Positions 2,592 through 32,882 of a DNA stretch of 64,000 bases are shown one piece after another (the stretch's first letter is position 1; each line of letters starts with the position of its first letter). Origin of the DNA: Escherichia phage BEU50. Made by a program: the position numbers and the translations under genes. The DNA is taken from the sequence record OM632671.1. The stretch is one strand, 5' to 3'. The notes below the pieces were generated by a model that saw nothing but the letters and a program-made list of their open reading frames with translations, did not search any database and was not told the DNA's origin.

Positions 2592-3080
2592 ATGAATATA
2601 TTTGAAATGCTTCGTAATGACGAAGGTCTTAGACTGACTTTATACAAAGACACCGAAGGCTTTTGGACGATTGGCATAGGCCATTTAGTAACAAAGAACC
2701 CGTCTTTAGCCGTAGCTAAAGCTGAACTTGACAGAATGATCGGACGTAAATGCAACGGTACAATTACCCTTGATGAGGCTGAAAAGCTATTTAATGAAGA
2801 CGTTGATAAAGCCGTTCGCGGAATCTTGGGTAATGCTAAACTTAAACCGGTATATGATTCTTTAGATGCGGTTCGTCGTTGTGCATTGGTCAATATGGTC
2901 TTCCAAATGGGTGTAGCAGGCGTCGCCGGTTTTACTAATTCTCTTCGTATGCTTCAACAGAAACGTTGGGATGAAGCGGCAGTAAATCTAGCCCAATCTA
3001 AATGGTATCGTCAGACACCTAATCGCGCGAAACGTGTAATCTCAACATTTAAAACAGGAACTTGGAAAGCGTATATATGA
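2592..3080 (+). CDS. e: lysozyme (endolysin)
   Basis: MNIFEMLR...GIGHL...[13 protein letters not shown] matches T4 lysozyme along its length; ORF-track start 2580 is GTG. Confidence 0.95.
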
Positions 3081-3358
3081 AAACATATAGTGAATTTTTA
3101 TCAGAATCTATTCTTAACGAAGCTACTGACACATTTGCAACTAAGCTAGGTGCAGCTTTGGTTGAAGCTGAAAGTCTATTAGCACGTATTTCTGAACTTG
3201 CTAGTAAGATAGATACTCGCAAATTTGAACGTACCAGCGATATCGCTAAGCTTGAAGCTTTGTTACGTATGTGCGATAAACCGGAAGAAATCGCTAAGAA
3301 CGGCTCGTTAATGAAACAACGTCTTGAAAAATATATTTCAGGCGCTTCAGAAAAATAG
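3077..3358 (+). CDS. internal-protein-like protein with capsid targeting sequence
   Basis: N-terminus [10 protein letters not shown] resembles T4 IP targeting sequence MKTYQEFIAE; ATG overlaps e stop (ATGA). Confidence 0.55.
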
Positions 3359-3359
3359 T

Positions 3360-3412
3360 GTTTACTTCCTCCAAGGACTTTGATACTATACATTCATCAA
3401 CTACTTGGAGGA
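3360..3412 (+). promoter_or_regulatory. early promoter inside inverted repeat (upstream of denV)
   Basis: GTTTAC 3360-3365; arms TCCTCCAAG (3367-3375) and CTTGGAGGA (3404-3412), distal arm is the SD. Confidence 0.5.
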
Positions 3413-3416
3413 AATT

Positions 3417-3830
3417 ATGACTCGTATCAATTTAACACTTGTTTCTGAACTGACTGACCAACATCTTATGGCTGAGTATCGTGAATTACCACGCGTATTT
3501 GGTGCAGTCCGTAAACATGTTCAAAACGGTAAACGTGTAAAGGATTTTAAAATCTCTCCAACATTTATCTTAGGCACAGGTCACGTAACATTCTTTTACG
3601 ACAAACTCGAATTTTTACGTTTACGTCAAATCGAGCTAATCGCTGAATGTTTGAAACGTGGTTTCAAAATCAAGGACACGACAGTCCAGGATATTTCCGA
3701 CATCCCTGCCGAATTTCGTAATAATTATGTCCCGTCCGAAGCGTCCATTGCGATAAGTCAAGCACGCTTAGATGAAAAAATTGCTCAACGTCCGACTTGG
3801 TACAAATACTATGGTAAATCAATTTACTAA
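3417..3830 (+). CDS. denV: endonuclease V, pyrimidine-dimer DNA glycosylase
   Basis: [12 protein letters not shown]...[11 protein letters not shown] matches T4 DenV; ORF-track start 3405 is TTG. Confidence 0.95.
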
Positions 3831-3836
3831 GGAAAA

Positions 3837-28616: not shown

Positions 28617-28790
28617 ATGACGAACGACCTGACCTCTGAAAATTTCGATAAAATCCGTAAAGGCAAAGCAGAAAGAATGAGACGTTTTAAAGAGTCTTAT
28701 GATAAAGCTAAAGCCGAAGGAACTATTACATACAAGCCCATTAGATTTAAAAGTTCAAATGAGCCTCTGTACGGTGTACTATGTGGATAG
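28617..28790 (+). CDS. small hypothetical protein (57 aa)
   Basis: ATG after GAGAGG; below ORF-track cutoff. Confidence 0.3.
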   Translation: MTNDLTSENFDKIRKGKAERMRRFKESYDKAKAEGTITYKPIRFKSSNEPLYGVLCG

Positions 28791-28814
28791 GAACTCTTCG
28801 GAGTTCCTTTTTTT
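28790..28814 (+). terminator. rho-independent terminator (UUCG tetraloop)
   Basis: GGAACTC-ttcg-GAGTTCC followed by TTTTTTT. Confidence 0.7.
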
Positions 28815-28860: not shown

Positions 28861-29880
28861 ATGAAAATTTTGCACTTAGGCGACTTCCATATCGGAGTCA
28901 AACAAGACGACCCATGGGTTCAAGATATTCAACGTGATGGTATTCGTCAAGCAATTGAATACTCTAAGAAACACGGGATTAAAACTTGGATTCAGTACGG
29001 TGATTGGTTCGACGTCCGTAAAGCAATAACACATCGTACAATGGAATTCAATCGTGAAATCGTTGATATGATTTCTAAAGCAGGCATTCACGTTCATGTC
29101 ACGATAGGAAACCATGACATGGCGTTTAAGAATACAATAACACCCAACACTGTTTCTGAATTGTTAACTCAATTTGAAAATTTTACTATTTACGAGCATC
29201 CAACTACTGTAGATTTTGACGGATGTCTTATTGATATCATTCCATGGATGTGTGAAGAAAATACAGGTGAAATCTTAGAGCACATCAAGACTTCTTCTGC
29301 AGCGTATTGTGTTGGGCACTGGGAACTGAACGGCTTTTATTTCTATAAAGGGATGAAGTCTCATGGGCTTGAACCTGATTTCTTAAAGACCTATAAACAA
29401 GTCTGGTCCGGCCACTTCCACACAATCTCTGAAGCTGCTAACGTCAAATATATTGGGACACCATGGACCCTTACTGCAGGTGATGAGAACGACCCACGCG
29501 GATTCTGGGTATTTGACACTGATGTTGAACGTATGGAATTTATTCCTAATGAAACAACATGGCATCGACGAATCACTTATCCGTTTAAAGGCAAAATCAA
29601 TTATTCTGATTATACTAATCTAGCCGTACGTGTTATAGTATCAGAAATTGATTCAGAGTTGACTAAGTTTGAATCTGAACTTGAAAAAGTAGTTCACTCT
29701 CTTCGTATGGTTTCTAAAGTTGATAACAGTGTTGAATCTGATGACGACCAGGAAATCGAGATTAAATCACTTCAAGATATCATTAAAGAATATATTGACG
29801 CGATTCCAGATATCTCAGACGAAGACAGAGAAGCGCTGGTCAAATATTCCAACGAACTTTATATTGAGGCAACACAATGA
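28861..29880 (+). CDS. 47: recombination nuclease subunit gp47 (Mre11-like)
   Basis: LHLGDFHIG, GNHD phosphoesterase motifs. Confidence 0.95.
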   Translation: MKILHLGDFHIGVKQDDPWVQDIQRDGIRQAIEYSKKHGIKTWIQYGDWFDVRKAITHRTMEFNREIVDMISKAGIHVHVTIGNHDMAFKNTITPNTVSELLTQFENFTIYEHPTTVDFDGCLIDIIPWMCEENTGEILEHIKTSSAAYCVGHWELNGFYFYKGMKSHGLEPDFLKTYKQVWSGHFHTISEAANVKYIGTPWTLTAGDENDPRGFWVFDTDVERMEFIPNETTWHRRITYPFKGKINYSDYTNLAVRVIVSEIDSELTKFESELEKVVHSLRMVSKVDNSVESDDDQEIEIKSLQDIIKEYIDAIPDISDEDREALVKYSNELYIEATQ

Positions 29881-30140
29881 CTTTAGATGAATTTAACAAT
29901 GCTGGACTCAGGCTTGAAGTTGAAATGGACGTTAAAGATGATGATGGATTCGAGAACACTATCAAGTATTGGATTGAGCCATTACGCGTTGAAGGCAATG
30001 AAGTTAAAGCAGTTCATGTCTGCACCGACTGGGCTGTATCCTTTAACTTCAACATTTTAGATAATGACACACCTAAATCATTGCGAGATATGGCTGTATC
30101 TTGTATTAAGGATGCATACTGTGAAGTTTTCGACATTTGA
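29877..30140 (+). CDS. hypothetical protein (87 aa)
   Basis: ATGA overlap with gene 47. Confidence 0.45.
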   Translation: MTLDEFNNAGLRLEVEMDVKDDDGFENTIKYWIEPLRVEGNEVKAVHVCTDWAVSFNFNILDNDTPKSLRDMAVSCIKDAYCEVFDI

Positions 30141-30156
30141 CATTAATGATGAATTC
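30108..30156 (+). repeat. diverged direct repeat, copy A (SD + GTGAAG start + first codons)
   Basis: AAGGA, GTGAAG and GA(C/T)ATTAATGA(T/C)GAATT in the same spacing as 30312..30358. Confidence 0.5.
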
Positions 30157-30327
30157 ATAGCAAACATTGATTATACCGAAGAAGATTCTAGATATGTTGG
30201 AATAATTTATATTACATCAAAAACAGCACAAGGCGTTGTTTGCATGGCTGAATTTGATGAATACTTTTTAGATTATGATGATATGATAGAATGGTCTAAA
30301 AGATACATTAAAAGGAATCTTTTGTGA
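30121..30327 (+). CDS. hypothetical protein (about 68 aa)
   Basis: GTG start with AAGGA SD; N-terminus duplicated at the start of the downstream HNH gene. Confidence 0.4.
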   Translation: MKFSTFDINDEFIANIDYTEEDSRYVGIIYITSKTAQGVVCMAEFDEYFLDYDDMIEWSKRYIKRNLL

Positions 30328-30358
30328 AGAATTTTAAACTTGATATTAATGACGAATT
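30312..30358 (+). repeat. diverged direct repeat, copy B, at the start of the HNH gene
   Basis: Collinear with 30108..30156. Confidence 0.5.
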
Positions 30359-31178
30359 TTTAATAAAGGAATTAGTTGAAAAATTAGTGTTGAGCGAAGA
30401 AGACGCCAAGTCTTACATTAATTTTATTTCTATGAATTCAACTGTTAAAACTCCGGGTAAAACGGAAGCACATCACGTGCTTCCTAAATCAATATTTCCT
30501 GAATATTTAAAATCTACATGGAATTTAGTTAATTTAAGTCATTTTAATCATTTCAAAGCACATTTCTTATTAGCAAAAGGTAAAAATGGAAAAATGCTAA
30601 ATGCTTTAAATAGAATGATGTCAGGAAAAACATATAAAAATTTATCTTTAGCCGAAGTTGATTTAATAGCTGCTGAATATAGTTTTATAAGACAAGATGT
30701 AAGTGACACAATATCAAAAAGGCTTCAACAATATTATTCAAATCCGCAAAATAGAAATGCTGCTAGAGAAAGGGCATTAAAATATTTTTCAGTAGCAAAA
30801 AATAGGAAAGATAACAAAGAAAGATTAAATAATTTTAAAACAAAACAAAAAATTTCAATGGCTTCAAGGGAATGGTTTAATAACGAAGAAAATAAAATTA
30901 AACACCAAAAGGCTGTTCGTGCTGCTTTATCAAAACCTGAATATAAAATAGCTATATCAAATTCAGTAGCTGCTAGTTGGAAAAATCCGGAGATTAGAAA
31001 AGCTCATATAGCATCTCGACGAAAAGGCTATCATTGGGATAATAAAGATAAATTGTATGAATTGTGGATATCATATAATCGTCCTAAACATGTGATGTTT
31101 AGGAAAATGTTAGTTAAGAATGGATATCCAATAGAGGCTTCATTACAGGCTTTAGTTAAAGAATTTTCTTCATTGTGA
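30324..31178 (+). CDS. HNH homing endonuclease inserted between genes 47 and 46
   Basis: GTG start; AHHVLPKSIFPEY...LVNLSHFNHFKAH motif; Lys-rich NUMOD-like C-terminus. Confidence 0.75.
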   Translation: MKNFKLDINDEFLIKELVEKLVLSEEDAKSYINFISMNSTVKTPGKTEAHHVLPKSIFPEYLKSTWNLVNLSHFNHFKAHFLLAKGKNGKMLNALNRMMSGKTYKNLSLAEVDLIAAEYSFIRQDVSDTISKRLQQYYSNPQNRNAARERALKYFSVAKNRKDNKERLNNFKTKQKISMASREWFNNEENKIKHQKAVRAALSKPEYKIAISNSVAASWKNPEIRKAHIASRRKGYHWDNKDKLYELWISYNRPKHVMFRKMLVKNGYPIEASLQALVKEFSSL

Positions 31179-31193
31179 ACAATTGGATACAAA

Positions 31194-32882
31194 ATGAAAT
31201 CATTTAAACTTAATAGAGTAAAATATAAAAATATAATGTCAGTTGGTCAAAATGGAGTTGACATTCAATTAGATAAAGTCCAAAAGACATTAATCACTGG
31301 TAAAAATGGCGGTGGTAAATCTACGATGTTAGAAGCCATCACTTTTGGACTTTTCGGCAAACCATTTCGTGATGTTAAGAAAGGACAAATCATTAATAGC
31401 ACGAACAAGAAAGAGCTCTTAGTTGAGCTTTGGATGGAATTCGATGATAAAAAATACTTCATTAGACGTGGCCAAAAGCCCAATATTTTCGAAATCTCCG
31501 TTGACGGTGTTCGTCTTGATGAATCTGCCAGCAGTCGTGACTTCCAAGAAGAATTTGAACGTAGCATCGGAATGTCATACGCGTCTTTTAAACAAATCGT
31601 TGTGCTTGGGACGGCAGGGTATACCCCTTTCATGGCTCTTAGCACCCCTGCTCGTAGAAAACTTGTCGAAGACCTTTTAGAAGTCGGCACACTCGCTGAA
31701 ATGGATAAAATCAATAAGTCTCAAGTTCGAGAACTTAATTCCCAGGGACAAGTTCTCGATGCCAAGAAAGATGGTGTTATCCAACAAATTAAGATTTATA
31801 ACGAGAATATCGAACGTCAAAAGAAATTATCTGGTGATAATGTAGCGCGTCTACAGAATATGTATGACGACCTAGCCAAAGAAGCTCGTTCATTAAAAGC
31901 AGAAATCGAAGAAGCTAATGAGCGACTACTTAATATCGTTCTTGATGAAGACCCTACTGAGGCATTCAACAAGATCGGACAAGAAGCATTCTTGATTAAA
32001 TCTAAAATTGACTCATATAACAAAGTTATTAAGATGTATCATGATGGTGGTACATGTCCTACTTGTGCATCACAGTTGCACCAGGGTGATCCTATTGTCT
32101 CTAAGATTACCGATAAGCTTCACGAATGTAATCACTCATTCGAGCAACTTACATGTCACAGAGATAATCTGAGTGTCCTAGTGGACGAATATAGAGCTAA
32201 TGTTAAGACTAAACAGGACCTTGCATCTGATATTCGTACCAAGAAACAAGCAATGATTGCCACTATTGATAAAGCTAAGAAAGTTAAAGCTGCAATAGAA
32301 CAAGCCTCGGCGGAATTTATCGACCATGCCGATGAGATAGCTTTGCTTCAAAAAGAACTTGATAAAATCATTAAAACAAAATCGGATATCGTTCTTGAAA
32401 AATACCATCGCGGTATTATCACAGATATGTTAAAAGATTCTGGTATTAAAGGTGCTATCATTAAAAAATATGTGCCTCTGTTCAACAAGCAGATTAACCA
32501 TTATCTTAAAATCATGGAAGCTGATTATGTGTTTTCTATTGACGAAGAATTCAATGAATCTATAAAATCACGTGGACGTGAAGAATTCAGTTATGCTTCG
32601 TTTAGTCAAGGTGAAAAGGCACGTATCGATATCGCATTGTTGTTTACATGGCGAGATATCGCTGAAAAGGTCTCTGGCGTTAGAATCAATACATTAATTA
32701 TGGACGAAGTCATGGATTCCGCGACTGATTCTGAAGGTATTAAAGCTATTTCAACAATTCTTAACTCTCTAACCGATGCAAACGTGTTTATAATTAGTCA
32801 CAGAGACCATGACCCACAAGCTTATGGACAACATCTTCAAATGAGCAAAGTTGGACGATTTACTGTAATGAAAGCCTCTTAA
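31194..32882 (+). CDS. 46: recombination ATPase gp46 (Rad50-like)
   Basis: Walker A GKNGGGKST, CPTC zinc hook, long coiled coil, C-terminal signature region. Confidence 0.95.
   Translation: MKSFKLNRVKYKNIMSVGQNGVDIQLDKVQKTLITGKNGGGKSTMLEAITFGLFGKPFRDVKKGQIINSTNKKELLVELWMEFDDKKYFIRRGQKPNIFEISVDGVRLDESASSRDFQEEFERSIGMSYASFKQIVVLGTAGYTPFMALSTPARRKLVEDLLEVGTLAEMDKINKSQVRELNSQGQVLDAKKDGVIQQIKIYNENIERQKKLSGDNVARLQNMYDDLAKEARSLKAEIEEANERLLNIVLDEDPTEAFNKIGQEAFLIKSKIDSYNKVIKMYHDGGTCPTCASQLHQGDPIVSKITDKLHECNHSFEQLTCHRDNLSVLVDEYRANVKTKQDLASDIRTKKQAMIATIDKAKKVKAAIEQASAEFIDHADEIALLQKELDKIIKTKSDIVLEKYHRGIITDMLKDSGIKGAIIKKYVPLFNKQINHYLKIMEADYVFSIDEEFNESIKSRGREEFSYASFSQGEKARIDIALLFTWRDIAEKVSGVRINTLIMDEVMDSATDSEGIKAISTILNSLTDANVFIISHRDHDPQAYGQHLQMSKVGRFTVMKAS

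Follow-up and report, generated by a model that had tools for sequence, protein, structure and literature searches.

How can a mobile endonuclease gene sit within the first codons of an essential recombination gene, and why does its translation start look like that of the gene before it? Both questions are raised by a locus in Escherichia phage BEU50 (OM632671.1), of which a stretch of 64,000 nucleotides (nt), here called the window, was analysed. An open reading frame (ORF) for a putative HNH homing endonuclease lies there between genes 46.1 and 46. According to a preliminary description of this DNA, about 48 nt of the initiation region of 46.1 appeared to have been captured or duplicated by the endonuclease gene, leaving a repeat as the footprint of the insertion. 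The comparisons reported here point to another arrangement. Very probably, when taken jointly with the other parts read from the sequence, the endonuclease gene uses the native Shine-Dalgarno sequence and GTG codon of gene 46, and the insert supplies gene 46 with a new ribosome-binding site (RBS) and new codons 1-3. The explanation as a whole, which adds a history for the resemblance to 46.1, was assigned a probability of roughly 0.6.

Composite start of the endonuclease gene

The genes of the locus, with lengths of products in amino acids (aa), are:

28861-29880, + strand, gene 47
29877-30140, + strand, gene 46.2 (Pfam T4_Y03C)
30121-30327, + strand, gene 46.1 (DUF5487, 68 aa, GTG start; Pfam PF17589, E = 4.5e-50; identical to T4 46.1)
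30324-31178, + strand, endonuclease gene (free-standing, Mob-like HNH, 284 aa, apparently intact, GTG start; phrog_655, E = 3e-45)
31194-32882, + strand, gene 46 (SbcC/Rad50-like recombination nuclease subunit), restarted at a substitute ATG

The TGA stop of 46.1 overlaps the GTG of the endonuclease ORF (GTGA). In T4 the order is 47, 46.2, 46.1, 46, the endonuclease gene is absent and the stop codon of 46.1 runs into the gene 46 start; genes 47 and 46, taken earlier to be adjacent in T4, are separated by 46.2 and 46.1. The nearest database genome, Escherichia phage NRG-P0074 (Mosigvirus, 99.2% identity), has the identical gene set, with the GTG start of the endonuclease gene annotated.

The start region of the endonuclease ORF was resolved into three parts, namely the RBS, GTG and codons 1-6 of gene 46, a copy of codons 7-12 of 46.1, and the endonuclease proper, which begins at about codon 11-13. 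The features concerned are:

30312-30341, + strand, native gene 46 initiation region (AAGGA, 7-nt spacer, GTG, codons 2-6; VKNFKL), now heading the endonuclease ORF
30139-30156, + strand, codons 7-12 of 46.1, GACATTAATGATGAATTC, encoding DINDEF, source copy of the short repeat
30342-30359, + strand, codons 7-12 of the endonuclease ORF, GATATTAATGACGAATTT, second copy of 46.1 codons 7-12 (15/18 identical)
30333-30345, + strand, left copy of a 13-nt direct repeat, TTTAAACTTGATA (gene 46 codons 4-8); spacing 870
31179-31202, + strand, right end of the insert, with a 15-nt spacer containing a weak RBS (GGAT) and the substitute gene 46 codons 1-3, ATGAAATCA
31203-31215, + strand, right copy of the 13-nt direct repeat, TTTAAACTTAATA, where native gene 46 sequence resumes

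Gene 46 of T4 begins AAAAGGAATCTTTTGTGAAGAATTTTAAACTT and continues AATAGAGTAAAATAT; the former is identical to window 30310-30341 and the latter to the window from 31212 onward. Presence and absence of the insert were scored in 489 T-even-type phage records matching window 30300-31230. The whole endonuclease ORF was present in 70 of these at 98.4-100% identity, always at one junction, and no partial copies were found among the 489. The other 419 records were endonuclease-free, matched the first 41-46 nt only (up to 30340/30345) and were continuous across the site. From the RBS through codon 6, the start of the endonuclease gene shows 100% identity to that of gene 46 in endonuclease-free phages and about 60% to that of 46.1. 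Because this segment is identical in T4 and matched in the 419 endonuclease-free records, it is, by sequence comparison, the native start of gene 46 and no copy from 46.1.

The following block has a different distribution. A perfect 17-nt copy of 46.1 codons 7-12 (GACATTAATGATGAATTT) was found in 51 of the 70 carriers; the window and T2 alleles are derived variants, that of the window with two extra substitutions. MKNFKLDINDEF is the start of all cluster members fetched that were full-length or complete at the 5' end (nine sequences inspected). In the alignment of the junction with endonuclease-free relatives, window 30310-30341 was present there, as the T4 gene 46 start, and the second DINDEF copy was missing from their gene 46 starts. 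Of the 48 nt thought to have been copied from 46.1, about 18 (codons 7-12) do seem to be a copy, and the RBS, GTG and codons 1-6 were native to gene 46.

The insert measures 870 base pairs (bp) and is flanked on both sides by TTTAAACTT(G/A)ATA, which corresponds to gene 46 codons 4-8 and was located with a repeat finder. Its left junction lies within or just after the left 13-nt repeat, in frame, after gene 46 codon 6. At its right end the TGA stop of the endonuclease ORF is followed by the spacer ACAATTGGATACAAA and by ATGAAATCA, placing the gene 46 ATG 15 nt past the stop. This substitute start was seen in all carriers examined (T2, the second Mosigvirus-type contig L007 and the window), and gp46 consequently starts MKS in carriers and VKN natively. 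The footprint of the insertion is the repeat at 30333 and 31203, 870 bp apart, together with the substitute gene 46 start; the repeat shared with 46.1 does not have this role.

The gene belongs to a known class of mobile genes, and its architecture is unusual: the start of the target is taken over in frame and a spare start is left for the target. Free-standing homing endonuclease genes are usually pictured between genes; this one interrupts an essential recombination gene within its opening codons, and the arrangement would be a compact route to expression of a selfish gene without harm to the host.

Likeness between the 46.1 and endonuclease starts

The start of 46.1 reads AAGGATGCATACTGTGAAG (30108-30126) and that of the endonuclease gene AAGGAATCTTTTGTGAAG (30312-30329). 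The arrangement noted earlier at both starts (AAGGA, 7-8 nt, GTGAAG) was confirmed from the sequence, with AAGGA-to-GTG spacers of 8 and 7 nt, respectively. AAGGA-N7/8-GTGAAG occurs exactly twice in the window (0.06 expected), and two matches were reached in 0 of 100 shuffles. The sequence D-I-N-D-E-F, likewise noted in the same spacing, was confirmed at codons 7-12 of both ORFs. The similarity of the two starts exceeds chance by three tests, the count of this pattern and the two comparisons of identity and of proteins given below. A repeat finder returned an imperfect direct repeat of 45 nt with a spacing of 203 (30120-30164 versus 30323-30367, 73% identical). At codons 7-13, 46.1 and the endonuclease gene are identical at 17 of 21 nt (19 of 21 for the commonest endonuclease allele), and the maximum elsewhere among 4,950 pairs of ORF starts in the window was 15 of 21. 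Comparison of the 46.1 and HNH proteins gave a BLASTP E value of 9e-4 and a shuffling p of 5e-4. The likeness is limited to the first 13 codons, without which the shuffle p is 0.37.

The 46.1 and 46 starts of T4, which is endonuclease-free, already share AAGGA-N7/8-GTGAAG. In endonuclease-free genomes, codons 2-7 of 46.1 and gene 46 are identical at 14/18 nt in the metagenomic contig L009 and at 10/18 in T4 and the Dhakavirus QL01; in L009 (2501-2724) the two genes start ATGAAGACTTTTGAATTTAAT (46.1) and GTGAAGACTTTTAAGCTTAAG (gene 46), for which the background p is ~6e-4. Since endonuclease-free genomes share the AAGGA...GTGAAG pattern, the likeness between the 46.1 and 46 start regions is, as read from these genomes, older than the insertion.

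The encoded endonuclease and its expression

From 1.84 billion representatives searched, 1,005 relatives of the endonuclease were recovered. A tblastn comparison with T4/RB mobD gave 30.5% identity over residues 47-281 (235 residues, E = 7e-12). The catalytic His-His...Asn...His motif is present (EAHHVLPKS ... WNLVNLSHFNHFKAH), and a family alignment of 91 sequences, headed by the window protein, shows no variation at Y31, H50, H51, P54, N67, H76 and H80. In the AlphaFold model (predicted local distance difference test, pLDDT, 92), residues 1-9 form a coil, 10-21 and 25-38 form helices and 47-84 a beta-beta-alpha unit, and the C-terminal half is all-helical. NUMOD3 matched 29 and the I-HmuI NUMOD-like domain 6 of the 91 family members, and the window protein matched neither at E < 0.01. 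NCBIfam and PDB sequence searches with the endonuclease were uninformative. The 284-aa ORF looks like a free-standing T4 Mob-like HNH homing endonuclease gene, apparently intact.

The first in-frame ATG is codon 37, past both of the N-terminal helices and the invariant Y31. Initiation there would remove conserved structure, and the GTG at 30324, alone among the possible starts in retaining the conserved N-terminal helices, is therefore the plausible start of the endonuclease. For annotation, the GTG start seems correct, and the first 12 residues are, on sequence grounds, outside the enzyme family.

In mobE/nrdA the start overlaps the upstream stop (UAAUGA), mobA starts with GUG, and translational coupling is on record for mobE/nrdA as for further endonuclease genes of T4 (PMC2988022). 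The overlap seen here is of the same type. The endonuclease is presumably translated by coupling to 46.1, and endonuclease and gp46 presumably belong to one translationally coupled chain. A late promoter or an RBS-sequestering hairpin stands upstream of several T4 endonuclease genes (PMC2988022); neither was found upstream of this one. RNA structure at the two start regions was insignificant (z-scores 0.7 and 1.0). A strong terminator-like hairpin (28789-28808, 8-bp stem, then a T run) lies just 5' of gene 47 and matches a terminator annotation in NRG-P0074, so 47, 46.2, 46.1, the endonuclease gene and 46 are probably a single transcription unit.

Proposed history of the shared block and rival explanations

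Two paralogues at the same locus bear on the origin of codons 7-12. In F2/pEK20 (10 records) a paralogue (L004 2423-3283; 44% identical over 258 residues, 24-281, aligned without gaps) stands in the place of 46.1, with codons 1-7 of RB69-type 46.1 joined in frame to its 5' end; its leader is identical to the first 22 nt of that gene, and F2 is without 46.1. In L013 a paralogue with its own start (3001-3834) lies directly between 47 and 46, with no 46.2 or 46.1. The BLASTP alignments are gapless, with each window residue equal to the F2 residue plus 4 and each F2 residue equal to the L013 residue plus 6. These offsets place the native Met of L013 at window residue 11, and the leaders are therefore 10-12 residues in the window protein and 6-7 in the F2 protein. 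The 12-codon leader of the window consists of six codons of gene 46 followed by six from 46.1 (codons 7-12). As a separate candidate, an origin of the insert tail from the 3' end of RB69-type 46.1 was rejected (local alignment p = 0.37).

By analogy with the F2 paralogue, a past fusion to the 46.1 start is proposed. An ancestral endonuclease gene would have become fused to the 5' end of a T4-type 46.1 at about codon 12, replacing the body of 46.1. The postulated intermediate would carry the 46.1 leader (VKFSTFDINDEF) joined directly to the endonuclease (-LIKEL...) at the junction GTGAAGTTTTCGACATTTGACATTAATGATGAATTTTTAATAAAG, with no separate 46.1. Unequal crossover between aligned look-alike starts of 46.1 and 46 would then have moved the endonuclease onto the gene 46 start. 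Such a crossover would give back an intact upstream 46.1 and leave 46.1 codons 7-12 behind as a fossil, and the codon register would be the same in both ORFs because the start regions crossed over in register. This history alone, of past residence on the 46.1 start and a later shift to the 46 start, was given an even chance. If it holds, the composite leader and the F2 paralogue would provide a datable, sequence-level record of moves between neighbouring landing sites.

Several observations weigh against the explanation as a whole. The postulated intermediate was found neither among the 70 phage records nor among the cluster members read or listed (nine sequences inspected), and the endonuclease gene gave 0 matches in each of IMG/VR (searched with right-junction and 5'-region patterns), JGI metagenomes and GTDB genomes. 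The homeology available for the crossover is only ~13/18 nt plus the RBS, and 'TT' alone is shared at the exchange point. A start of the type M-D-I-N or M-x-D-I-K occurs in some unrelated family members (7 of 151), so that DINDEF could be native to the enzyme. As to the protein, Pfam HNH models did not match it and PDB fold searches, which were uninformative, did not confirm an HNH fold; membership of that fold therefore rests on the motif and homology.

The block could also have been filled in during a direct, microhomology-mediated illegitimate entry into gene 46, with 17 nt copied from 46.1, 203 bp off, by a template switch. This would have been one repair event, and the endonuclease gene would never have resided on the 46.1 start. 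A short, exact block with abrupt breakpoints and 2-5 nt microhomologies (TT at the left, GAATT at the right) suits such an event, as does the missing intermediate lineage. It leaves unexplained, however, why the block occupies the same codon positions (7-12) in both ORFs, which an in-register crossover yields automatically, and the F2 paralogue shows that residence on the 46.1 start occurs in the family; templated filling is regarded as unlikely. Poorer still are the prospects of the view that 46.1 is itself the decayed remnant of an endonuclease gene of this lineage that entered gene 46 earlier at this site, since re-invaded, 46.1 and the present gene both being gene 46 codons 1-6 plus an endonuclease N-terminus. 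It would account for the alikeness of the first codons of 46.1 and gene 46 in endonuclease-free genomes and for family members that begin MDIN.. or M.DIK..; 46.1 matches the endonuclease gene in AT-richness (29.0% GC versus 28.7% for 30342-31178, with genes 47, 46.2 and 46 at 37-38%), its family is tiny (35 clusters), and the endonuclease gene is decaying at present in T2 and RB68. Yet likeness is lost past codon 13, and a hidden Markov model (HMM) of the family, built on 151 representatives, scored 46.1 like decoys (p ~0.3, 6,000 shuffled). Six-frame comparison of 46.1 with the full-length family HMM, and blastn at word size 7 against three endonuclease genes, gave nothing past nt 1-44. Conservation of 46.1 in three genera (Tequatrovirus, Mosigvirus and Dhakavirus) would make any such remnant old, whereas the shared block is an exact 17-mer with T4-type 46.1 only, which points to a recent event, and the gapless paralogue alignment puts the native N-terminus at about residue 11, after DIND.

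Two further readings have very little probability left to them. Duplication of ~48 nt of the 46.1 initiation region (RBS, GTGAAG and 13 codons) between otherwise adjacent genes 47 and 46, as first proposed, would fit the 45-nt repeat and the RBS-GTGAAG pattern common to both starts. Its first 30 nt are refuted by the T4 comparison, being wholly the gene 46 start, and its adjacent genes by the presence of 46.2 and 46.1 between 47 and 46 in T4. Chance, or convergent selection on two N-terminal peptides or initiation regions, could draw on AT-rich sequence, a codon 2 that is frequently lysine and a short motif; against it, none of the 4,950 ORF-start pairs attained equal identity, synonymous positions are identical as well (17/17 nt in the majority allele), and the insignificant RNA structure at both starts speaks against convergent selection.

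The preferred explanation, a borrowed gene 46 start with a fossil of 46.1, could be part of a wider pattern, which is put forward tentatively and is itself doubtful. Endonuclease genes of this family in the 47-46 interval would have no initiation region of their own and would persist by recombination between look-alike start regions (the 47 stop, the 46.1 start and the 46 start), moving from one resident RBS and leader to another and leaving a few fossil codons behind each time. The likeness of 46.1 and 46 would then be a product of this traffic, 46.1 could be debris of an element, and a ~175-nt island seen in some endonuclease-free contigs (below) would be a scar of aborted homing.

Mobility and the mosaic tract

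The endonuclease gene lies within a segment whose type differs from that of its surroundings:

30027-31276, no strand assigned, T-even (Tequatrovirus)-type tract in an RB69-like (Mosigvirus) backbone, a co-conversion tract, by diagnostic T2-versus-RB69 sites

Between 28861 and 32882, identity to RB69 is 97-100% and to T2/T4 only ~55-85%, except at 30036-31265, where the window is ~100% T2/T4-like and unlike RB69. Diagnostic sites change from RB69 to T2 type between 30026 and 30036 and back between 31265 and 31277. The tract extends from the 3' half of 46.2 across 46.1 and the endonuclease gene to ~70-80 nt into gene 46, with T-even-type flanks of ~370 bp (~300 bp left, ~55-65 bp right). Gene 46.2 (29877-30140) is chimeric because the left co-conversion boundary falls inside it, with an RB69-type 5' part and a T4-type 3' part from ~30030 (VCTDWA...). 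In L007 the same gene has its left boundary at 30234/30241, inside 46.1, and nearly the same right boundary. Judged by these sites, 46.1, the endonuclease gene and the 5' ~70-80 nt of gene 46 are imported from a T-even phage, and the mosaic tract records recent gene flow from T2/T6-like phages to an RB69-like phage.

Inactivated copies, frameshifted or truncated, were found in T2 (L002 3610-4462; 204 + 85 aa), RB68 (P0037; 208 aa) and P0044 (107 aa); P0202 is listed among the inactivated copies, and some metagenomic copies are frameshifted or truncated too. Copies such as those of T2 and RB68 are as expected for a selfish gene. Sporadic presence at one site, co-converted flanks and decayed copies are, at the level of sequence, classical signatures of a homing element.

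Other kinds of mobile element were considered and rejected. For a transposable element with a target-site duplication, no inverted repeat pairs the insert ends and the only ORF is the HNH gene; the flanking 13-nt repeat belongs to a longer imperfect copy of the gene 46 start. For a group I intron, no Rfam family reached the gathering score anywhere in the window. For an intein, the endonuclease ORF has its own stop codon and gene 46 restarts at its own ATG.

Comparison with known systems

The T4 mob genes (mobA-E) belong to the same protein family (phrog_655), MobD, at 30% identity, being the nearest characterised-family relative and MobE the best studied. They too occur sporadically beside or between conserved DNA-metabolism genes, with co-converted flanking markers and frequent frameshifts. 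Unlike them, the window ORF does not lie between genes; it continues in frame from the first six codons of its target gene, whose RBS it takes and for which it brings a replacement RBS and first three codons.

Intronless homing has reportedly been observed for SegF and SegG, and homing in trans for MobE. In those cases the endonuclease gene is inherited with adjacent sequence, giving short mosaic tracts comparable to the 1.24-kb T-even tract of the window; the transfer here differs in crossing genera (Tequatrovirus to Mosigvirus) and in being known from sequence footprints, not from crosses. Genes split by an endonuclease gene are a further parallel. Gene 39/60 of T4 is split by mobA, and mobE is said to split nrdA in the Aeromonas phage Aeh1. 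Both resemble the window in that the insertion lies inside a coding gene that stays functional. In contrast to Aeh1 nrdA and T4 39/60, gene 46 is not made as two polypeptides; only its first 3-6 codons occur twice, and translation from the new start gives the whole of gp46.

At the same locus, the F2/pEK20 paralogue is like the window gene in lacking a start of its own and reading on in frame from the opening codons of a resident gene. It differs in the resident gene, RB69-type 46.1 (7 codons), and in its 3' end, which overlaps the gene 46 start and supplies no separate one. In the literature consulted, no description of an endonuclease gene at the 46.1/46 junction was found.

Further observations at the locus

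On the minus strand, a further Mob-like HNH ORF (33595-32879, 238 aa; phrog_655, E = 6e-67) runs towards gene 46 and into its stop codon; the C-terminus of its product has zinc-ribbon-like CxxC pairs. At 33648-33641, ~46 nt 5' of the ATG of this ORF, there is a T4 late-promoter box, TATAAATA. The ORF was also found in F2, NRG-P0074 and L009 and not at the T2 locus.

In Dhakavirus QL01 (L014 1-495) another HNH endonuclease gene stands directly 5' of gene 47, and in L010 (637-1260) a 207-aa ORF is in place directly upstream of gene 47. The surroundings of 47 and 46 look like a hotspot for endonuclease genes.

Three endonuclease-free metagenomic T4-like contigs (L009, L010 and L011) have backbones 55-75% identical to T4 and, within them, an island of ~175 nt in which identity to T4 rises to 95-100%. 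It starts at codon 10 of 46.1 (GATGAATTC), stops at codon 3 of gene 46 (GTGAAGA), at the endonuclease insertion site, and is equivalent to window ~30148-30330; it may be a scar of recombination or aborted homing at this site.

In the laboratory-evolved phage HP3.2 (L015 1501-1620), a deletion joins 46.2 codon 26 in frame to gene 46 codon ~19 and takes out the remainder of 46.2, the whole of 46.1 and the N-terminus of gene 46; the locus thus tolerates large rearrangements.

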